64,000 bases of DNA from an uncultured Eubacteriales bacterium (GCA_949077035.1 CARUPR010000002.1:4218-68217), one strand, 5' to 3'; shown: positions 31,396 to 41,125, counted from the stretch's first letter. The notes: generated by a model from the letters alone, not told the origin. Program-made: numbers and translations.

Positions 31396-32010
31396 ATGAA
31401 TTATAAATTTTTAAGTGTAGACTTTCAAAATGAATTTGCTGATAAAAATGGAAAATTTTTTAATGGCGGCAAAAGCATTGATTTTATACAAAAAACTCTT
31501 ATACCATTTTTACAAAAAAACAACATAAAGGTTTGTGAAATTATATCTGATTATCGTCTGCCTCGAAAAAAAAGTTCATCTGCAGGTTGCATACCTGGGG
31601 AATTTGGATTTCAATCTGCTTTGCCAGAAAATGTAAGAGATGTTTCGCCTTGGATTAAGTGCATGAATAGTCCGATATGGATTAGAAAGAATATAGGCAA
31701 AAAAGATAAGAAGGCTGGCATACCTTATCAAGATGCAAAAAAATTTAATAAATGGTTGAAAAGTCACTTTGGACAGCCAAGTGAAGATTTAACTATCATT
31801 CTTTTTGGACTAACACTTGATTGCTGCGTTTTGTCTGTTGCTCAAGAATTGTATTGGCATGGCTATAGATTTAAAATATTAATAGAAGCAACAGATGTTA
31901 TGCCTAATAAAAATCAAGAGGAAGTTAAGAGGCAGTTGGTAGGTGGCCAGGTCCTTAATCATTGGCTTAAATTTATTAAATTTGAAGATTTAATTAAAGA
32001 TTTTAAATAA
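31396..32010 (+). CDS. Isochorismatase-like cysteine hydrolase family protein
   Basis: The N-terminal SVDFQNEF resembles the VDxQNDF motif, and LFGLTLDCCVLSVAQE supplies the catalytic-Cys strand. Confidence 0.55.
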   Translation: MNYKFLSVDFQNEFADKNGKFFNGGKSIDFIQKTLIPFLQKNNIKVCEIISDYRLPRKKSSSAGCIPGEFGFQSALPENVRDVSPWIKCMNSPIWIRKNIGKKDKKAGIPYQDAKKFNKWLKSHFGQPSEDLTIILFGLTLDCCVLSVAQELYWHGYRFKILIEATDVMPNKNQEEVKRQLVGGQVLNHWLKFIKFEDLIKDFK

Positions 32011-32033
32011 AAACTCTAAATTTTGGAGGGGAA

Positions 32034-32843
32034 ATGTTAGGTGCAATTATTGGTGATTTGGCAGGCTCAGTTTATGAATTTGACCAATATAAAAAAATAA
32101 GAAAAATTGAATTGAAAAATATTATCGATGATGATGCTTTTTTCAGTGATGATACAATATTGACAATTGCAATCGCTGATGCGATTTTATGTGGAGGGGG
32201 AAATTTATATAAAAATAAGCTTAAGGAATATGCCAAAAAATATATGAATTTAATTCCGCAAAATGTCCCTTATTTTAAAAAGATGTTTTCGCCAGATTTT
32301 GAGAAATGGACTTATGGCGATTTTCAAGGCAGCAGCAATGGAAATGGTGCAATGATGAGGATATCGCCGGTGGGCGAAATGTTTTTATCAAAGGAAGAAG
32401 TTTTAAAAAATACATATCTGGCAATATCGCCTTCCCATAATAATGAAGATGCAATAAAATATGCAAGCTTGGTCGCTTTGATTATTTTTTATTCAAGCAG
32501 ATGTGGTATGAAAAGGGAAGAGATTATTAAAGAATTGAATATTGAGATAAAAAAGCCTGATATAAAAAATTTTAATTATACTTGCAATGATACAATTGAT
32601 GTCTGTTTATATTCCGTGTTTAATTCAAACAGCTTTGAAGAAAGCATAAAACTTGCCATTTCATTTGGTGGTGATACAGATACCAATGCTTGCATTGTCG
32701 GAAGCATGGCAGAGGCAATCTTTGGCATCCCAGAATATTTGAAAACATGGGCATTAGAAAAATTGCCAGCTGAATTTATTGAAATTATTGAAAGGTTTGA
32801 GCGTGCAAAAGAAGATAATGCAAAACAGGCGAAATTGAAATAA
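32034..32843 (+). CDS. ADP-ribosylglycohydrolase (ARH/DraG family)
   Basis: Contains MLGAIIGDLAGSVYEF, FSDDTILTIAIADAIL, GNGAMMRISPVG and GGDTDTNACIVGSMAEAIFG. Confidence 0.85.
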   Translation: MLGAIIGDLAGSVYEFDQYKKIRKIELKNIIDDDAFFSDDTILTIAIADAILCGGGNLYKNKLKEYAKKYMNLIPQNVPYFKKMFSPDFEKWTYGDFQGSSNGNGAMMRISPVGEMFLSKEEVLKNTYLAISPSHNNEDAIKYASLVALIIFYSSRCGMKREEIIKELNIEIKKPDIKNFNYTCNDTIDVCLYSVFNSNSFEESIKLAISFGGDTDTNACIVGSMAEAIFGIPEYLKTWALEKLPAEFIEIIERFERAKEDNAKQAKLK

Positions 32844-32902
32844 AAAATCATAATAAATTAAAATAAATCGAAAATAATATGAAAATTTAAAGGAGATAAA
32901 AC

Positions 32903-33535
32903 ATGAGAATAGGAATTGATATAGATGGAGTATTGACAGATTTGGATAGCTTTCAATTTGATTTTTTCAGTAAGTTTTGTGTTGAAAATAAAATACCATA
33001 CAATATTAAAACAAGCAAATATGACATTTCAAAATCTTTTGGCTTAGGAGATGCTGAAGAAAACAAATTTTGGGATATATATTTAGATTATTATGCTAAA
33101 CAAGAAAGGGCAAGAAGATTTGCTTCAGAAGTGATTAAGAAATTGAAAGAAGAAGGTCATGAAGTTTATATTATTACCGCAAGATGGTTGACAAACAGAG
33201 ATGATGCCTTGGGTGAAAATATGAGAAACACAGTCAAAAAATGGCTTGATGAAAACGATATAGTTTATGATAAACTGATTTTTTCAAAGGCAAAGAAAGA
33301 GAAAAAAATTGATGAAATCAGGGAAAACAATATTGATGTTATGATTGAAGACAGCCCAAGCAACATAAACGAGCTTTCAAAAATTATCCCTGTTGTATGT
33401 TTTGATGCTTCATATAATAAAAAATGCAAAGGCGAAAATATCCATAGATGTTTTAGCTGGTATGATGTTTATAATAAAATAAACCAGTTAAGCAAGCAAA
33501 AATATAATGAAGAAGAATGTATTCAAAATATTTAA
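32903..33535 (+). CDS. HAD-superfamily 5'(3')-(deoxy)ribonucleotidase-like phosphatase
   Basis: MRIGIDIDGVLTD carries the DxDG nucleophile motif. YIITAR and VMIEDSP are also present. Confidence 0.6.
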   Translation: MRIGIDIDGVLTDLDSFQFDFFSKFCVENKIPYNIKTSKYDISKSFGLGDAEENKFWDIYLDYYAKQERARRFASEVIKKLKEEGHEVYIITARWLTNRDDALGENMRNTVKKWLDENDIVYDKLIFSKAKKEKKIDEIRENNIDVMIEDSPSNINELSKIIPVVCFDASYNKKCKGENIHRCFSWYDVYNKINQLSKQKYNEEECIQNI

Positions 33536-33550
33536 AAGGAAGATAGGAAA

Positions 33551-34111
33551 GTGAATAATTTAACAAACAAAATAAGAAAGAAAAAATTTTATCAAAGAAA
33601 AACATCGGTATCAAAAAATCTTGTTAAATATAGAGATTATATCCTTGTTGAGAATATACAAAAATATGAATTTATTGGCTTTTACCCAAGAGAATTTTTT
33701 TGCTTTGATAATTTTTCATCTTTTGCTATTGTTTATAAAGGCACCAAATATCTTACCGTTGAGCATGCCTATCAAGCTATGAAATTTGTTGATACTGCAC
33801 CAGAAATAGCAAAAAAGATTGTTGAAAGCAATTCGGCGGTTGAGGCAAAGATAATAGCTCGAAGAAATGCTGATAAACAAAACAAAGACTGGACAAAGAT
33901 AAGCGCGCAAGTTATGGAAGAATTGTTGAGGGCAAAGATTGCTCAACATGAATATGTTAAGACTAAGCTTCTTGAAACAAAGGATATGCTGATTTGTGAA
34001 GATTCGCCAACTGACAGCTTTTGGGGGATAGGGCCAAACAGAGATGGCGAAAATATGCTTGGCAAGATTTGGATGAAATTGAGAGATGAACTTATTGCAT
34101 CAGAAAAATAG
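33551..34111 (+). CDS. NADAR (YbiA/DUF1768) family N-glycosidase
   Basis: FDNFSSFAIVYKGTKYLTVEHAYQAMKF...EDSPTDSFWGIG. GTG start, with a GGAAAG/AGGAAG RBS region. Confidence 0.8.
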   Translation: MNNLTNKIRKKKFYQRKTSVSKNLVKYRDYILVENIQKYEFIGFYPREFFCFDNFSSFAIVYKGTKYLTVEHAYQAMKFVDTAPEIAKKIVESNSAVEAKIIARRNADKQNKDWTKISAQVMEELLRAKIAQHEYVKTKLLETKDMLICEDSPTDSFWGIGPNRDGENMLGKIWMKLRDELIASEK

Positions 34112-34115
34112 AAAG

Positions 34116-34149
34116 AAAAAAAGTTGCTTAATTTAAAGCAACTTTTTTG
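34116..34149 (+). terminator. Intrinsic terminator after the NADAR gene
   Basis: aaaaaaa AGTTGCTT aattta AAGCAACT tttttt. Confidence 0.8.
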
Positions 34150-34330
34150 TTGTGCACCTAAATATAAACTTGGAATGTTTATTTTTTATTGGCGCACTAG
34201 ATTTAAAATTTTATTATAAAAATTTCAAATTATATGATAATATATTGAAAAACCACATAAAATTGTGATTTTTTTTAAAAATTAAGGCGAATTTAACAAA
34301 TTATTAATAAAAAATTAACAATACAAACAA

Positions 34331-34879
34331 TCAATCTTTGATATATTTTTTCAATTTTTTATTAATAATTTTTTGAAGGGTATCCATCTTTCTGTTGGTT
34401 TTTATTTTAATGACAGGGGCATTGCAGGAAGAAATTACATATTTTTGAGAGGCTTTACTTCTTATATCTAGACCAAGTTTGTTATAATTTTTGGCAATGT
34501 CTAAAAAGATAAGAAAATTTTTCTTTACCTCTTCGTCAGAATGTTCTAAACTATGTCTGCCTTTTTCATTATCCCTATTTAATATCCTTTTAATTCTGAT
34601 TTTTGTTGGGCATTTTAAATAAATTATCAAATCAATATATTCAAAGGTGATAGGGTTTGAATGGAGTGAGCCAGTTATGATTAAATTATTAGAATTTTTT
34701 ATCCTTTCAAGCAGAAGTCTATTGCTTTCCTCAATAGGTCGCATTTCTTGAAATTCAGGTATTGTTTGTTCCCACTTATAAAAGTCACTTTCTATAATGT
34801 CATAACCAAGTGATTTGCTTAAAATTTCGCCAATTGTCGAAGTTCCGCTTCCACTCGGCCCCATAATATGAATAATCAC
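34331..34879 (-). CDS. P-loop nucleoside/nucleotide kinase-like protein (adenylate-kinase fold)
   Basis: MIIHIMGPSGSGTSTIGEIL is the Walker A motif. GTG start with AAGGAG 7 nt upstream. It has its own operator-bearing promoter. Confidence 0.6.
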   Translation of the reverse strand: MIIHIMGPSGSGTSTIGEILSKSLGYDIIESDFYKWEQTIPEFQEMRPIEESNRLLLERIKNSNNLIITGSLHSNPITFEYIDLIIYLKCPTKIRIKRILNRDNEKGRHSLEHSDEEVKKNFLIFLDIAKNYNKLGLDIRSKASQKYVISSCNAPVIKIKTNRKMDTLQKIINKKLKKYIKD

Positions 34880-35031
34880 AATATTTCTCCTTTTGTTTGA
34901 ATTTTAAATAAAATATCGAAAATTTAACTAATTTTTATAAATTTTTGCGATTTTTATTAATATTTTCTCAAAATTATATTTAATTAGTCAAATTTTCGTA
35001 TTTTTTATTAATAAATATTTATTCTTTATAA

Positions 35032-35064
35032 GGTGATTTTATCACATTTTTGAGGGATAGTCAA
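35032..35064 (-). promoter_or_regulatory. Promoter plus dyad operator (site 3) upstream of the kinase gene
   Basis: The reverse strand reads TTGACT (35059-35064), a 17-nt spacer, then TAAAAT (35036-35041). The dyad TGTGATAAAATCACC (35032-35046) overlaps the -10. Confidence 0.6.
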
Positions 35065-35067
35065 TTA

Positions 35068-36546
35068 TTATTTTTCTATCTCATTTATTGTGTTTTTTGC
35101 TATATTTGCATTTCCTTTGTTGTGCTCTTCAAGCAAACGTTCTTTAAGCTCTGCAAGCTTTGGGCTAAGATTGATAGTGATAGTTTGAGCATTTGTAAGT
35201 CTTAAATTTTCCTCTTTTAAAGTATTAATTTGTTTTGCAACAAAATCTCGTTTTTGAGCAGGGGCTTTAAAATCATAGATGATTTTTCCATTTTCCATCA
35301 TCTTATGTCTGATTTTTACAGGTGTGTAATCGGTTATTGTATAAGTTTTCCAAGAAGAATTTGGGTCTTTAATTTCTATTGGACCTCTTGCAACTTTTTC
35401 ACCATAAAGTTTTAATATGTCGGTAAGAATTTTTCCATCTTTATCATAAAGGCGGACAATGTCTTTAAAGCCTGGATTTGTCACCTTTTCAATATTGTCA
35501 GAAATTTTGATTTTTGGCACTAAAGCTCCCTTTTCATTTTCAAGAGCGGTGAGTTTGTATACACCACCAAATACAGGTTCTGATTTTGCAGTAATCAAGT
35601 TTTCACCAACGCCAAATGTGTCAATAGGTGCACCTTGTTTAAGAAGGTCAGAGATAAGATATTCATCAAGAGAATTTGAAACGCAAATTTTTGTATCATA
35701 CATTCCTGCTGCATCAAACATCTTTCTTGCCTGTTTTGATAAGTATGCAAGGTCGCCACTATCAATTCTTATTCCGGCAAGTTTTTTGCCCATTGGTTCT
35801 AAGATTTCTTTTGCAACTTTGATTGCATTTTGGACTCCGCTTCCCAAAGTATCATAGGTGTCAACAAGGAAGGTTGCATTGTCAGGGAAAGAGAGGGCAT
35901 AAGCTTTGAAAGCTTCATATTCATTATCAAAACTTTGAATAAAGCTGTGAGCCATTGTGCCTAATACTGGGACGCCAAATTCCATACCAGTCATTGTGCA
36001 GGCAGTGCCTACAGCACCACCAATGTAAGCATCAAGTGCACCTTCATTGGCAGCAGATTCACCATGAGCTCTTCTTGTCCCAAATTCCATAACAGCTCTT
36101 CCTTGTGCTGAACGCACAATTCTGTTTGACTTGGTTGTGACAAGTGAAGAACGATTCATAATTGTAAGAAGTTTGGTTTCAACAATTTGAGCTTCAACAA
36201 TAGGTGCAACAACAGTCAAAATAGGTTCGTTTGGAAATGTAACAGTTCCATCTTGAACGGCATAAACATCACCGGTAAATTTTATTGTTGAAAGATAATC
36301 TAAATAATCCTCTGTAAAAAGATTGAGGCTTCTCAAATAATCTATTTCTTCCTTTTCAAATTTAAAATCTTTTAAAAATTCAACTGCAGCTTGAACATTT
36401 CCTGCAAGAGTAAATGCAGCTTTATCTGGACATCTTCTATAAAATAGGTCAAAACAAGCCTTTCTTTTTTCCAAGCCTTGATTAAAATAAGCTTGCCCCA
36501 TTGTAAGTTCGTAAAAATCAATTAACATATTATTTTTTTTGCTCAT
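35068..36546 (-). CDS. pncB: Nicotinate phosphoribosyltransferase
   Basis: Contains MLIDFYELTMGQAYF, FGTRRAHG and GTMAHSFIQ. Length is 492 aa. Confidence 0.93.
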   Translation of the reverse strand: MSKKNNMLIDFYELTMGQAYFNQGLEKRKACFDLFYRRCPDKAAFTLAGNVQAAVEFLKDFKFEKEEIDYLRSLNLFTEDYLDYLSTIKFTGDVYAVQDGTVTFPNEPILTVVAPIVEAQIVETKLLTIMNRSSLVTTKSNRIVRSAQGRAVMEFGTRRAHGESAANEGALDAYIGGAVGTACTMTGMEFGVPVLGTMAHSFIQSFDNEYEAFKAYALSFPDNATFLVDTYDTLGSGVQNAIKVAKEILEPMGKKLAGIRIDSGDLAYLSKQARKMFDAAGMYDTKICVSNSLDEYLISDLLKQGAPIDTFGVGENLITAKSEPVFGGVYKLTALENEKGALVPKIKISDNIEKVTNPGFKDIVRLYDKDGKILTDILKLYGEKVARGPIEIKDPNSSWKTYTITDYTPVKIRHKMMENGKIIYDFKAPAQKRDFVAKQINTLKEENLRLTNAQTITINLSPKLAELKERLLEEHNKGNANIAKNTINEIEK

Positions 36547-37178
36547 AATTCTATCTCCTTATCATTTTGTTTTTTAGTTTGATTTTTTATTTGTTTTTCA
36601 AATTGTCTGTTTATTTGTTTTGTTGTTTGTTTATCCAATTGTTTATTCAATCGTTTATCCATTTGTCTATTAAATTGTTTATCCAATTGCTTTTTTATAT
36701 CATCATAACCTTCAGGGATGACATATTTTAGATATTCTTTTTTATTTCTTATATCAGTGCCATGCACTGCAATTGCATCGCGGTCAATCGCAACAAATTC
36801 ACACTCAGGGAAATATAGTTCGTTTAACTGGCGATAACTTTCATCTGCATATTTTGCAGTTATTTGGTCTTTTATTACTTCCTTAAATCTTTTTGACCAT
36901 TCTTCAAGTCCTTCAGGGAAGCTTTTTAAACCACTTTCATCAAGGAAGACAAACTTTATATTGTTGTTTCCTTGATAGTGTTTTTTCAGCCACTCTAATC
37001 TCTGCATTGGTGTAAAGTATGGAAATGAAGATTTTTCACATTTTTCCTTTGAACGTTTTGGGTCTTCTGAAAGGACAATGACTGCTTTTTCACATTCATT
37101 AATTACTCTATCAATCACACTGAGATGGCCGATGTGGGGTGGTAGAAATTTGCCTACAAAGCAACCTATTTTTTTCAT
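36543..37178 (-). CDS. NMN/NaMN adenylyltransferase (NadR/NadM-type cytidylyltransferase fold) with a C-terminal tetrapeptide-repeat tail
   Basis: GKFLPPHIGHLSVI is the HxGH motif. A 4-bp overlap links it to pncB. The tail has 12 tetrads: IKKQ LDKQ FNRQ MDKR LNKQ LDKQ TTKQ INRQ FEKQ IKNQ TKKQ NDKE. Confidence 0.7.
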   Translation of the reverse strand: MKKIGCFVGKFLPPHIGHLSVIDRVINECEKAVIVLSEDPKRSKEKCEKSSFPYFTPMQRLEWLKKHYQGNNNIKFVFLDESGLKSFPEGLEEWSKRFKEVIKDQITAKYADESYRQLNELYFPECEFVAIDRDAIAVHGTDIRNKKEYLKYVIPEGYDDIKKQLDKQFNRQMDKRLNKQLDKQTTKQINRQFEKQIKNQTKKQNDKEIEL

Positions 37179-37193
37179 AAATTTCGCCTCACT

Positions 37194-38396
37194 TTATTTA
37201 TTAAAAAACTCATCATAAAGAAAGTTTTCAACTTCTTTGTCTTCATATTCTTGAAGTTTCTTTTCAAGTTGTTTGATTCTTTGTTTATAAACAAAGTTTC
37301 TAAGGCCATATTTGCTTCTCACACAAAATTTTTCATTGTCTAAAAGTTTTTCAATATCTTCAAGTTTTACTGGCACAACTTCAATTTTTTCATCTCCTTG
37401 AAGATTCTGTTTGCCTGTCATTGTGACTTCAGCTTCATATAGTTCTGCATTTTCATCAGTCAATCCCAAAGAAGAATATGCTGCAGTTTCTGTCCTCTTG
37501 ATGTGTTTTACTTTTGCTCCGATTTCTTCATCAAGCTCTCTTATTGCACTTGTCATGCTATCTTCGCCTTCATCCACAAGTCCTGCAGGTATTCCATAAA
37601 CATAATCACCGATGGCACGTTTAAATTCTTTAATAAGATATACAACCATTGAACCATTTACATAAGAATATGGTATCATGTGCACTGCATCTGGTTTTAG
37701 GGTAGGTTGCACGATTTCAGGAAGTTTGCGTCTTGTAACCATTTCGTATTTAATTAAATTGTTTCCGTCTTGATAAGTCACTTCAAACATATTTAAAAAT
37801 TTTCTGTCAGTAAGTTTTTTGATGCTTATTGGTTTTAAAGTATTCATATAGGTAATCTCAACTCCAAGTTCTTCAAGTTCTTTAAGTGCCTGACTATTTA
37901 CTTTGTCAGCTTCATGATTTGGTGCATTAAAGGTATCAACACTGTTTTCAGAGATAGAAATCTTTGTCCCAATTTTATTTTCAGCAAAATATTTTACCAA
38001 ACTTTGAGTAAGTGAACTTACGCATATATCTGTGCAGCATCCAGTGATTTCTATATTGTCAAATTTGTTATTCTCTAAAATTGCCTTCATCATAATTGTA
38101 TTAAATCCATTTGTTGTATTTTTGTTTATGACAAGCATATCCTTTTCATATGGTTTAAGCTGGTCTATAAGCTCACACTCGCGGCTACCTTTTATGCAGT
38201 GGGGTGGGAATAACTTAAATTCCTCGTCATTTTCATCATGAGTATCTTTAAAGGCAATTATCATGTCACCATTTTGCTTTGCCTTTTCAATCTTATGGAC
38301 TATTGATGGAACAATTGAATTAATACGGCTGTCTGCCAATGCTCCTTCATTGATGAATCCATTTACCATGTCAACTACTATTAATAAATTTTTCAT
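37194..38396 (-). CDS. pncA: Bifunctional nicotinamidase (PncA-like) / Nudix ADP-ribose pyrophosphatase fusion
   Basis: The N-terminal half has LLIVVDMVNGF, FPPHCIKGSRE and ITGCCTDICV. The C-terminal half has the Nudix box GIPAGLVDEGEDSMTSAIRELDEEIG and the NudF-like segment SSLGLTDENAELYEAEV. Confidence 0.8.
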   Translation of the reverse strand: MKNLLIVVDMVNGFINEGALADSRINSIVPSIVHKIEKAKQNGDMIIAFKDTHDENDEEFKLFPPHCIKGSRECELIDQLKPYEKDMLVINKNTTNGFNTIMMKAILENNKFDNIEITGCCTDICVSSLTQSLVKYFAENKIGTKISISENSVDTFNAPNHEADKVNSQALKELEELGVEITYMNTLKPISIKKLTDRKFLNMFEVTYQDGNNLIKYEMVTRRKLPEIVQPTLKPDAVHMIPYSYVNGSMVVYLIKEFKRAIGDYVYGIPAGLVDEGEDSMTSAIRELDEEIGAKVKHIKRTETAAYSSLGLTDENAELYEAEVTMTGKQNLQGDEKIEVVPVKLEDIEKLLDNEKFCVRSKYGLRNFVYKQRIKQLEKKLQEYEDKEVENFLYDEFFNK

Positions 38397-38436
38397 TTTT
38401 TCCTCCTTAAAATATGTATATGTCTGATATCATCAA

Positions 38437-38469
38437 TATGATAATATCACATTAAAAATAATTTGTCAA
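38437..38469 (-). promoter_or_regulatory. Promoter plus dyad operator (site 1) of the pncA-nudix/NMNAT/pncB operon
   Basis: The reverse strand reads TTGACA (38464-38469), a 17-nt spacer, then TATTAT (38441-38446). The dyad TGTGATATTATCATA (38437-38451) overlaps the -10. Confidence 0.65.
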
Positions 38470-38487
38470 CTATTTTTTTAAAATTTC

Positions 38488-38520
38488 TTGACAAAATATT
38501 ATCATTGTGATAATATCAAT
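38488..38520 (+). promoter_or_regulatory. Promoter plus dyad operator (site 2) of nadE-nrtR
   Basis: TTGACA (38488-38493), a 17-nt spacer, then TAATAT (38511-38516). The dyad TGTGATAATATCAAT (38506-38520) overlaps the -10. Confidence 0.65.
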
Positions 38521-38537
38521 GGTGAAAGGAGATTATT

Positions 38538-39302
38538 ATGGATAAAAAAGAGATAGAAAAAATCAAATTATGGATAAGCGACTATATAAAAAACGCTCAT
38601 GCAAATGGTGTAATTCTTGGAATGAGCGGGGGAAAGGATAGTCTTATCACAGCAAAACTTTGTGTTGATGCACTTGGCAAGGATAAAGTTTTGGGCGTCA
38701 TTATGCCAAATGGCGAAATGAAGGATTGTCAAGTAGCCATTGAAAGCTGTCAATTATTAGGAATAAGATATTATAATATAAATATTAATAATCTATATAA
38801 AGATATGCTTGACAATATTTCACCAATATTAAAAAATGAAGATAAACCTCTCAGCACAGTAACAACATACAATGTCCCTCCAAGACTTAGAATGGTTTCA
38901 TTATATGCCATTGCAGGAAGCCTTGGTTATCTTGTTGCAAACACTTCAAATCTTTCAGAAGCTATGGTTGGTTATACCACTAAATGGGGCGATAATGTTG
39001 GCGACTTTGCTGTTCTTGCAAATTATACAAAAGATGAAGTGTGTCAGCTTGGTCTTTTGCTTGGTCTTCCAGAAAATCTTGTAAATAAGGTCCCAGATGA
39101 TGGTTTGACAGGAAAGACAGATGAAGATAAACTAGGCTTCAGTTATCAAGAACTTGATAATCTTATAAGAAATGGTAAAAAGGGTGAAAAATATGACCTT
39201 ATCTCAAAAATGCATAGACTTTCAGAGCATAAAAGGGTGGGGACAGCAAAATTCCCAAATGATACAAAAAATTATTTCTATGAAGATGAAATTGAATTGT
39301 AA
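38538..39302 (+). CDS. nadE: Ammonia-dependent NAD+ synthetase
   Basis: GMSGGKDSLITAKL is the SGGxDS PP-loop. Length is about 254 aa, and GYTTKWGD is present. Confidence 0.93.
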   Translation: MDKKEIEKIKLWISDYIKNAHANGVILGMSGGKDSLITAKLCVDALGKDKVLGVIMPNGEMKDCQVAIESCQLLGIRYYNININNLYKDMLDNISPILKNEDKPLSTVTTYNVPPRLRMVSLYAIAGSLGYLVANTSNLSEAMVGYTTKWGDNVGDFAVLANYTKDEVCQLGLLLGLPENLVNKVPDDGLTGKTDEDKLGFSYQELDNLIRNGKKGEKYDLISKMHRLSEHKRVGTAKFPNDTKNYFYEDEIEL

Positions 39303-39307
39303 AACAA

Positions 39308-39359
39308 TTGATTAACTTTTGATTAATTATTGATTATCTTTTGATTAATTATTGATTCA
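39308..39359 (+). repeat. Five TTGATTA repeats at an exact 11-bp period
   Basis: TTGATT(A/C) starts at 39308, 39319, 39330, 39341 and 39352, between nadE and nrtR. Confidence 0.9.
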
Positions 39360-39464
39360 ATTATTAATATTTAAAATATTGTTTAGAACATTATTTAAAA
39401 TTGATTTGATTTTTATTAATCAAAGGTTATAATTTATACTGCTAATAAAAATTTGAGGTGAAAG

Positions 39465-40331
39465 ATGAAAATTTCAAGTGAAGAAAAACAATTCTTAGAA
39501 CTATATTCAGATAGTCATTATCAAAAACCTTCGGTGACTGTTGATGCGGTTGTTTTAAGAATGATAGACAAAGAAAGTGATAATTATAGAAAACTGCCAG
39601 AGAAAAAACTGCAGGTGTTTTTGACATACAGAAAATATCCACCTTTTGTAAATCATTATGCGGTTGTAGGCACTTTTATTGATTTAAACAATACTCTTGA
39701 AGAAACTTTGGATTTATGTGTCAAAAACAAAATATCTTTGGATAACTTTTATAAAGAACAACTCTTTACCTTTGGTGATAAACAACGTGACCCAAGAACA
39801 AGAGTTTTATCAGTCAGCTATATGCTTCTGACACATAATCAAGAGCTTAACAATGGCAAATGGTTTGATTTTGATATTCAAGAAAGGGAAATTTTATCTG
39901 AAATATCTCAAGAAGGGTATCATGTTGAAAAAGAAATCACTATCACTCTTTCAAATGGCGAGGAGGTATTGAATAATAAACTCAAATTATCAATAAAAAG
40001 CAGTGAGCTTAAAATGGAAAAGAAACTTGAGATTATCTCTTCAGACATCGCTTTTGACCATATCAAACTTATCTATTTTGCACTTGATAGATTGAAAAAT
40101 AAACTTGAATGGACAGATATTGCCTTCAATCTTCTTCCTAAAAAGTTTACCTTGACAGAACTTAAAAATTGCTATGAAGAAATTTTGGGCACAAAACTTT
40201 TGGATGCCAATTTCAGAAGAAAGACTGCCGACCTTGTATGTCCTCTCAATGAGTATACATCTGATAAAGGTCACAGACCATCACAACTTTTTAAGCATAA
40301 TCCAAATTGGGACAGAAGATTGAATATATAA
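39465..40331 (+). CDS. nrtR: NrtR-like (Nudix-related) transcriptional regulator of NAD metabolism
   Basis: The N-terminal Nudix-like fold (PSVTVDAVVL...) lacks a clean catalytic box. The C-terminal winged-helix signature reads LLPKKFTLTELKNCYEEILGTKLLDANFRRK. Confidence 0.7.
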   Translation: MKISSEEKQFLELYSDSHYQKPSVTVDAVVLRMIDKESDNYRKLPEKKLQVFLTYRKYPPFVNHYAVVGTFIDLNNTLEETLDLCVKNKISLDNFYKEQLFTFGDKQRDPRTRVLSVSYMLLTHNQELNNGKWFDFDIQEREILSEISQEGYHVEKEITITLSNGEEVLNNKLKLSIKSSELKMEKKLEIISSDIAFDHIKLIYFALDRLKNKLEWTDIAFNLLPKKFTLTELKNCYEEILGTKLLDANFRRKTADLVCPLNEYTSDKGHRPSQLFKHNPNWDRRLNI

Positions 40332-40422
40332 TTTACGAAAGATATTAAAAAAATTGTTATTAAAATTTAATATTAAAAATATAAGATAAATAATTTTTAA
40401 AAAATAAAACTTTAAAAATGGC

Positions 40423-40456
40423 AAAAAAACCTCCCATAAAAGGGAGGCTTTTTTTA
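40423..40456 (+). terminator. Intrinsic terminator after nrtR
   Basis: aaaaaaa CCTCCC ataaaa GGGAGG cttttttt. Confidence 0.85.
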
Positions 40457-40670
40457 GCGTAAGTTTTATTAAATTGTTTTGAATATTGTCAAAGTGACAA
40501 TAAATTTAAGTCAAGATAAATTTGCAAAATTCTTTATCAGCAATACCTTCATATTGGGGACATTTTCTTGCCCCATTTTCATCTTATGTGATAAAGGCAA
40601 ATAATGTGTCAAATTGATATCTGAAATATATACAAAGTGCAAACTTAGTGATGCAAATTTGTCAAATTGC

Positions 40671-40997
40671 TTAAGCCAAAAGTGAATTTATATTGTTTTG
40701 TATCAACAAACAAAGCCTTGAATACTCAGGAATGTTTATAAGCTTCAACAGATTGGAAGATAGATTAAGGCAGATTTTTAAATTGGCTTTTGTGGTTGGT
40801 TTTTCTTCGATAAGCTCTAAAGGGGTGGCAAATAAAGAATAATATAGATTTGAAATCATAAGCTCGGTTTCATCAAGCAGATTTAATCTTTCTTCATCTT
40901 TTTCTTCTTCCTTTATCAAAACAATGTTTTCATAAAGCTGTTGTATGGTTTGCTTTATCTCAGGCAGAAGGGTGTTTTCTGCCTGTATGGTTGTCAT
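40671..40997 (-). CDS. Hypothetical helical protein (109 aa)
   Basis: An ORF with GAGG 10 nt upstream of ATG 40997. I recognise no motif. Confidence 0.45.
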   Translation of the reverse strand: MTTIQAENTLLPEIKQTIQQLYENIVLIKEEEKDEERLNLLDETELMISNLYYSLFATPLELIEEKPTTKANLKICLNLSSNLLKLINIPEYSRLCLLIQNNINSLLA

Positions 40998-41125
40998 ACT
41001 TTTAAAACCTCTCATGTTTGTAAGCTCATATTTTTGCGTGAGAATATTATAATTACAAAAAAACTTGTGCATAGCTTTCTCCTTTACACAAGTTTTATAT
41101 GATAAAATTATTAAATTTGTGATTA

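Follow-up and report, generated by a model that had tools for sequence, protein, structure and literature searches.

The window analysed here, a 64,000-nucleotide stretch of DNA from an uncultured Eubacteriales bacterium (GCA_949077035.1, CARUPR010000002.1:4218-68217), carries an island of genes for nicotinamide adenine dinucleotide (NAD) salvage and synthesis, in which an operon headed by a pncA-Nudix fusion and a divergent nadE-nrtR operon start from neighbouring promoters (Table 1). We consider it likely that the sites over these two promoters, at 38425-38449 (pncA) and 38494-38518 (nadE), are operators for NrtR, the 288-amino acid Nudix-related regulator encoded after nadE, which is predicted to act by occluding the -10 element. 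Sequence comparison points to TGWTAWTATCA (TG-N7-CA) as the conserved operator core, usually with a degenerate box 14 bp away, the two making up a 25-bp unit.

An initial annotation of the window had described three TGTGAT-N3-ATCA dyads, the third at a kinase gene, as a set of equivalent operators at which a repressor covers the -10. This idea is supported for pncA and nadE by an invariant box, by co-occurrence with NrtR and by boxes at unlinked NAD operons; for the kinase site it is doubtful.

Conserved boxes over the pncA and nadE promoters

The three sequences are present at the coordinates and strands listed in Table 1, and the promoter geometry described for them is correct, with TTGACA or TTGACT placed 17 nt from a TAWWAT -10 that lies inside each site. 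In a consensus promoter scan of positions 34000-41000, only these three TTGAC(A/T)-17-TAWWAT promoters have TG ahead of the -10, and all three fit an extended -10 sigma-A promoter (TTGACA/TTGACT, 17-bp spacer, TRTG at -16, TAWWAT).

We aligned the pncA-nadE divergent region, which is 141 bp long in the window as first reported, from 18 species of the genus, in which nadE is 60-91% identical. The invariant columns are both -35 hexamers, TGWTAWTATCA over each -10, and ATAWCA of the second pncA box, while spacers and leaders vary. The CA that directly follows the -10 never changes, and the bases after it vary freely. In addition, the -10 inside the box is always TATTAT or TAATAT, both of which keep the palindrome, and never TATAAT. 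The invariant CA and the avoidance of TATAAT are features that go beyond the needs of a promoter.

The second box carries clear information with the consensus TRAWRATAWCA, and none is seen beyond it. The core has the spacing TG-N7-CA and no conserved palindromic flanks that reach 21 bp, the second box 14 bp away being found instead. At pncA the two boxes together form a 25-bp near-palindrome, TGATATTATCA-TAT-TGATGATATCA (38449-38425, minus strand), and the nadE unit reads AAATATTATCA-TTG-TGATAATATCA (38494-38518). Within the clade of the host genome (G000), ATATTATCA is conserved in the upstream nadE box; elsewhere in the genus, one clade has the second nadE-promoter box downstream instead. 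A table of 41 reference boxes was also assembled; since box 1 was fixed in the pattern used to pick them, the 18-species alignment is the basis for calling box 1 invariant. Of the 18 pairings between the two W positions, one in each box, 12 are consistent with a palindrome, a covariation that is not significant.

Relative to the predicted starts, box 1 extends from -16 to -6 in both promoters, and the second box from about -2 to +9 (pncA) or -30 to -20 (nadE). NrtR sites overlap promoters or fall between promoter and start codon (PMC2330246), and from these box positions the pncA and nadE sites agree with the published placement.

Co-occurrence of the unit with NrtR

Counts refer to a genus sample of 121 genomes; the host genome measures 1.27 Mb (31.6% GC, 17 contigs), and sequences of loci from other genomes were read by eye or entered by hand. 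nadE is found in 18 of the 121 genomes, and full-length orthologues of the 288-amino acid NrtR in the same 18. When searched as TGWTAWTATCA-N8-ATAWCA, the 25-bp unit is present in 18/18 NrtR-bearing genomes as compared to 2/103 genomes without NrtR, and those two have single matches with poor second boxes. A natural control, that is, the same target gene in a genome without NrtR, does not exist in the sample, nadE and the Ndt-like gene described below being confined to NrtR-bearing genomes. Distant NrtR homologues of the same order (L007 and others) had neither informative palindromes nor an NAD context.

The initial annotation had named the NrtR-like protein as the only regulator in the island. 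The genome also holds a second NrtR-family paralogue, outside the island, of about 225-230 amino acids (G000:C3:114870-115439), which has relatives in 34 of the 121 genomes and is not tied to the NAD island. The boxes could be true operators read by this paralogue, or by an unrecognised factor borne on the island, a possibility raised by the presence of the second gene and by the indirect nature of an assignment made through co-localisation. The paralogue is not the partner of the boxes, since 22 of its 34 genomes lack the unit (e.g. G012, G013, G051, G065) and it was undetected in four unit-bearing genomes (G005, G060, G127, G128). Furthermore, the 288-amino acid NrtR is the only DNA-binding protein common to the orthologous islands examined, and we regard a reader other than this protein as very improbable.

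Boxes at other NAD-related operons

The unit is also found ahead of unlinked, mutually non-orthologous genes in NrtR-bearing genomes. In the host genome it precedes the operon G000:C5:39123-43750 (L047 224-4852), whose products are a pyridoxal phosphate (PLP)-decarboxylase-like protein (359 amino acids), a radical-SAM protein (296 amino acids), a NadE-like protein (341 amino acids) and a 545-amino acid protein with a NadD-like N-terminal half. The unit recurs in G129 ahead of the orthologous operon, of which the first two genes only lie on a short contig, the full operon having been read in G000. The C5 operon may encode an undescribed pyridine-nucleotide pathway.

An Ndt-like gene (144-145 amino acids, nucleoside 2-deoxyribosyltransferase-like) has the unit upstream in G014, G060, G127, G086 and G096 (L048, L049, L051, L053, L054). 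It was found in six genomes only, all of them NrtR-bearing, with the box directly upstream in five of the six; the window's own genome does not carry it. It is the leading gene of an operon in G060 and G127, together with SET-domain and endonuclease/exonuclease/phosphatase (EEP) genes, to which G127 adds a Nudix protein and a 295-amino acid protein that can be read as a nucleoside hydrolase, given its 60% identity to a host gene matched by Pfam IU_nuc_hydro. One further site, in G128, lies ahead of a gene of unassigned function.

In the C-terminal half of the 545-amino acid C5 protein a phosphoribosyltransferase-like motif, VDDDSVSGET, can be read. At G095:C5 (L056 140-215), three tandem boxes with a 14-bp period follow TTGACA, as TGATACTATCA-tag-TGATAATATCA-caa-ACACAATATCA, in front of an operon for a protein resembling the adenylation domain of NAD-dependent ligase (LigA), PnuC and an NR-kinase-like AAA_28 kinase of NadR type; this would be the clearest multi-box operator found.

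Promoter signal and operator signal

The sites could instead be strong extended -10 promoters only (TTGACA-17-TRTGnTAWWAT), with the ATCA half and the dyad produced by chance and shared ancestry. TRTGnTATAAT is the extended -10 of Gram-positive bacteria, and TGTGNTAWWAT occurs 77 times in the host genome, mostly after -35-like hexamers and ahead of genes. In relaxed form, TTGACW-N14-TGWTAWWATCA is found in 79/121 genomes, most of them without NrtR, while a reversed control pattern gave no matches. The motif as first written is thus partly promoter signal, in line with the caution already expressed in the initial annotation. There, occurrence at unrelated genes was to mark the motif as generic, and this is what we observe in part, the relaxed form being common in NrtR-less genomes. 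The sites themselves are real, but the TGTG portion of the dyad is generic extended -10 sequence and is not conserved in orthologues, which have TATG, TTTG, AATG or ATTG.

The window contains the pattern TGTGATNNNATCA three times, where 0.48 would be expected, and 1 of 100 shuffles reached three. Genome-wide there are 9 occurrences in 1.27 Mb, four of them behind a correctly spaced -35, namely those at pncA, nadE and the kinase gene and a fourth in the 23S-5S rRNA spacer, where the promoter is identical to the kinase one over TGTGATAAAATCA. A CRP/FNR-type site was considered and rejected on spacing, the consensus being TGTGA-N6-TCACA with half-sites 11 bp apart and the sequence seen being TGTGA-N5-TCA(C), with the same unconserved TGTG.

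Promoter function by itself fails on several of the observations, and we consider it improbable that it accounts for the pncA and nadE sites. It leaves unexplained the invariant CA and second box amid drifting neighbours, the confinement of the 25-bp unit to NrtR-bearing genomes and its recurrence at non-orthologous NAD promoters. It also fails on the total avoidance of TATAAT, which is the commonest -10 of host TTGACW-N17 promoters (56/119). CA after the -10 is rare in these generic promoters (8/119), whose -10 is mostly TATAAT or TAAAAT and which have no second box. When the 44 TTGACW-N14-TGNTAWWAT promoters of the host genome are compared, 7 continue with CA, and these comprise all four NAD-related promoters versus 3/40 others (hypergeometric estimate, about 3e-4). 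The 11-bp box is found at 12 places in this genome, 8 of them inside open reading frames (ORFs); in just three cases, pncA, nadE and the C5 operon, does a gene begin no more than 150 nt downstream of the box, and all three are NAD genes.

Several points nevertheless weigh against NrtR operators at pncA and nadE. Taken over the whole genome, the 11-bp box by itself shows no enrichment (20 strand hits versus an estimated 16 or so expected), which also favours a promoter-only origin. Nine of its 11 positions double as promoter elements, so that much of its conservation is expected anyway, and orthologous promoters are non-independent samples. Within the island, the box is absent at other NAD/ADP-ribose operons, those of pnuC, the inosine-uridine nucleoside hydrolase (IUNH) and ARH/NADAR. 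As for the protein, its match to NCBIfam NF050029 (NtrR, the equivalog of the ADP-ribose-responsive repressor) scores 105.7 bits versus a cut-off of 400; membership is thus at family level only, and transfer of the effector from the characterised repressor is unsure. Finally, a 14-bp box spacing matches neither the site spacing nor the footprint of BtAraR, an NrtR-family repressor of Bacteroides thetaiotaomicron, whose tandem semi-palindromic 21-bp operators are 3 bp apart (24 bp centre to centre) and whose dimer covers 25 bp (PMC4666351).

The kinase site

The initial annotation had treated all three sites as equivalent NrtR operators. Comparison backs the pncA and nadE sites, but leaves the kinase site uncertain. 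In its favour are the retained TG-N7-CA, the 5-of-6 palindrome GTGATAAAATCAC and its position on the -10 of a promoter within the NAD island; the kinase gene is, in relatives, part of the pncA operon. In all five orthologous loci read (G014, G076, G060, G044, L027), however, the kinase follows pncB by about 30-135 bp and the pncB-kinase junction has neither this promoter nor this site, which is therefore species-specific among the sampled loci. Moreover, box position 7 is A, due to the TAAAAT -10, versus T in 41/41 reference boxes, and no second box is recognisable there. The 13-mer TGTGATAAAATCA recurs at the rRNA-spacer promoter behind TTGACA, and similar promoters are common in NrtR-less genomes. 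Equivalence of all three sites thus appears doubtful. From these comparisons the kinase site is somewhat more likely to be a promoter only than a weak operator captured together with a new promoter; at best, it is a weak, recently acquired operator.

The rRNA-spacer promoter is an observation in its own right. It lies at G000:C7:92353-92383 (L001 6354-6384, minus strand) as a near-consensus extended -10 promoter, TTGACA-N12-TGTGATAAAATCA, in a 199-nt 23S-5S spacer, 48 nt upstream of the 5S gene, and suggests that 5S rRNA may have its own promoter.

The 288-amino acid regulator

Membership of the 288-amino acid protein in the NrtR family is sound on the basis of sequence matches. Pfam PF21906 (NrtR_WHD) is recognised at residues 220-277 with an E-value of 3e-18, and sequences of solved structures are matched, namely BtAraR (5BS6), EF2700 (2FML), SoNrtR (3GZ5, 3GZ8) and NadQ (7Q91). 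In BtAraR, SoNrtR and NadQ the winged helix-turn-helix (wHTH) region can be aligned to that of the protein, and its residues 46-127 match the Nudix domains of BtAraR and SoNrtR (3GZ8, E 8.6e-7). Pfam NUDIX is not reported in the protein at E<=0.001. The best full-length match is EF2700/2FML (residues 17-268, E 1.2e-16).

By manual reading of the 2FML alignment, the Nudix signature GX5EX7REUXEEXGU is degenerate, with N for E, DL for RE and KN for EE, and the segment reads G-TFIDL-N ... DL-C-V-KN. Such a loss fits a sensor rather than an enzyme. We also observe an insertion of some 60 residues (about 128-192) between the Nudix core and the wHTH when the protein is compared to BtAraR and SoNrtR; EF2700 aligns through most of it.

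A model for repression

The pncA-Nudix/NMNAT/pncB(/kinase) operon and the divergent nadE-nrtR operon would each be transcribed from a near-consensus sigma-A promoter that doubles as an NrtR operator. The letters would be shared, in that TG serves as the -15/-14 element and in the operator, TAWTAT as the -10 and in the operator, and CA in the operator only, with a second degenerate box, TRAWRATAWCA or, upstream, ATATTATCA, 14 bp off. The wHTH domains of a dimer would lie in successive major grooves, as expected of the NrtR family (PMC2330246; PMC4666351), an arrangement that fits the N7 spacing between TG and CA. One or more bound NrtR dimers would keep sigma-A off the -10 and the transcription start, and the operons would be repressed. 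An NAD-derived effector, ADP-ribose by analogy, could bind the catalytically dead Nudix domain and release the repressor; ADP-ribose is known to relieve NrtR binding in vitro (PMC2330246). The Nudix domain of the PncA fusion would then consume the inducer, giving feedback. We infer binding of the 288-amino acid protein to these sites, as well as repression, effector and stoichiometry, from sequence and by analogy with the family.

nrtR itself is probably autoregulated through read-through from nadE, since the nadE-nrtR interval has no terminator ahead of nrtR and the gene's own promoter (TTGATT-16-TATAAT, 39406-39433) is weak. This promoter comes after a set of tandem repeats, five copies of TTGATTA(A/T/C) with an 11-bp period at 39308-39362, between the nadE stop codon and nrtR.

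A broader proposal, which we put forward tentatively and regard as rather unlikely, is that the dual-read promoter/operator with two to three full or half boxes phased by 14 bp represents a new NrtR binding mode, and that it governs a lineage-specific NAD regulon with undescribed enzymes. If real, the 14-bp phasing would imply overlapping dimers on different helix faces, or a higher oligomer, which are not seen in the SoNrtR and BtAraR structures. The regulon, if true, would include the Ndt-like protein with its SET, EEP, Nudix and IUNH partners, and an operon (PLP-decarboxylase-like, radical-SAM, NadE-like and NadD-phosphoribosyltransferase) that could make or recycle a pyridine nucleotide by a new route.

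Comparison with known NrtR systems

The system is of a known kind, an NrtR-type NAD regulon, and a repressor placed on the -10 is conventional as regulation. As in the NrtR regulons of Firmicutes and Gammaproteobacteria, a Nudix-wHTH regulator lies beside pncA, pncB and nadE, and palindromic, promoter-overlapping sites, which can occur in tandem, are found at genes of NAD salvage and universal synthesis; the gene content is like that of the NrtR regulons of Clostridium acetobutylicum or Pseudomonas. It differs from these in its 11-bp core with a second box at 14 bp, the core coinciding base for base with the extended -10 and -10, in its host, an uncultured small-genome Clostridia genus, and in the insertion of about 60 amino acids in the Nudix domain of the regulator. 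The novelty, at the level of predicted elements, lies in a motif that is specific to the lineage and fused with the extended -10, in the 14-bp phasing and in several unstudied members of the regulon. The extended -10 promoter is itself nothing unusual, since the form that all three sites fit, with a near-consensus -35 at 17 bp, is shared by dozens of unrelated host promoters.

Described NrtR motifs are 21-bp palindromes, whose core is given as GT-N7-AC in the Results and as TG-N7-CA in the Discussion of Rodionov et al. 2008 (PMC2330246). These two versions matter when new motifs are compared, the core found here being literally TG-N7-CA; in the BtAraR crystal the operator core is GT-N7-AC (PMC4666351). 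Tandem sites are known for SoNrtR (PMC2330246) and BtAraR (PMC4666351).

BtAraR (5BS6/5DD4; PMC4666351) shares the two-domain architecture and, among solved structures, scores highest for the wHTH. Its repression is lifted by a small molecule, as proposed for the 288-amino acid protein, but its effector is L-arabinose and its regulon serves sugar utilisation; two dimers 14 bp apart, as the boxes here would imply, are undescribed for it. EF2700 of Enterococcus faecalis (2FML) is also of the NrtR family and differs in having, from the alignment, an intact-looking Nudix box, lost in the 288-amino acid protein. For the Enterococcus group, no operator or regulon could be derived by Rodionov et al. 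(PMC2330246). For the NrtR subgroup that has an insertion in its Nudix domain and is closest to EF2700, the present sites offer an operator and a regulon that can be tested. The setting is an uncultured gut Clostridia genus of reduced genomes, in which about 15% of species carry an island for NAD salvage and synthesis. The refined motif could be used to annotate NAD regulons in metagenome-assembled genomes of the genus, and it marks the unstudied Ndt-like gene, radical-SAM/NadE-like operon and P-loop kinase as linked to NAD.

Genes of the island

The gene calls of the initial annotation are confirmed for the kinase, PncB, the NMNAT-like protein, PncA-Nudix, NadE and the 288-amino acid NrtR winged-helix protein (Table 1). 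An Rfam scan of positions 33500-41000 gave no riboswitch. The box is absent at the SDR operon of the island and at the operon at 31396-34111.

Table 1. Promoter elements, boxes and genes of the NAD island, in window coordinates.
Feature	Position	Strand	Remarks
pncA-operon site TGTGATATTATCATA	38451-38437	-	
nadE-nrtR site TGTGATAATATCAAT	38506-38520	+	
kinase site TGTGATAAAATCACC	35046-35032	-	
pncA -35 hexamer TTGACA	38464..38469	-	invariant in the 18-species alignment
pncA predicted operator box 1 TGATATTATCA	38439..38449	-	spans the extended -10 TG and the -10 TATTAT (38446-38441); columns invariant in 18 species
pncA predicted operator box 2 TGATGATATCA	38425..38435	-	separated from box 1 by 3 nt, on its downstream side; overlies the expected start of transcription
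nadE(-nrtR) -35 hexamer TTGACA	38488..38493	+	invariant in the 18-species alignment
nadE degenerate upstream box AAATATTATCA	38494..38504	+	in the promoter spacer; 14 bp from its TATCA to that of box 1
nadE predicted operator box 1 TGATAATATCA	38508..38518	+	perfect 11-bp palindrome with the -10 TAATAT (38511-38516); invariant
kinase-promoter site TGATAAAATCA	35034..35044	-	-10 TAAAAT 35041-35036; -35 TTGACT 35064-35059; a single mismatch to the box, at T7
pncA-Nudix fusion (isochorismatase-domain nicotinamidase + Nudix)	37194..38396	-	first gene of the regulated operon (predicted)
NMN/NaMN adenylyltransferase-like gene	36543..37178	-	resembles the NadR adenylyltransferase domain
pncB, nicotinate phosphoribosyltransferase	35068..36546	-	
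P-loop kinase, 182 amino acids	34331..34879	-	last gene of the pncA operon in orthologous loci
nadE, NH3-dependent NAD synthetase	38538..39302	+	
nrtR, 288-amino acid Nudix-related regulator	39465..40331	+	C-terminal NrtR winged helix
terminator downstream of nrtR	40423-40454		

Close homologues of nadE (E<=1e-20) and the NAD island are restricted to 18 of the 121 genomes of this small-genome genus, which tend to be the larger ones (1.1-1.4 Mb); the other genomes may depend on imported NAD precursors, or may encode a distant NadE below the search threshold. In some relatives (L025/L026/L028; G060, G044 and a third) an extra gene is present between nadE and nrtR. Its product has the look of an ADP-ribosylglycohydrolase, as read from the sequence (GGDTDTNAAIA motif) without a domain search, and such a gene beside nrtR would fit an ADP-ribose signal. 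In G044 (L026), an additional ORF lies between the nadE-side promoter and nadE.

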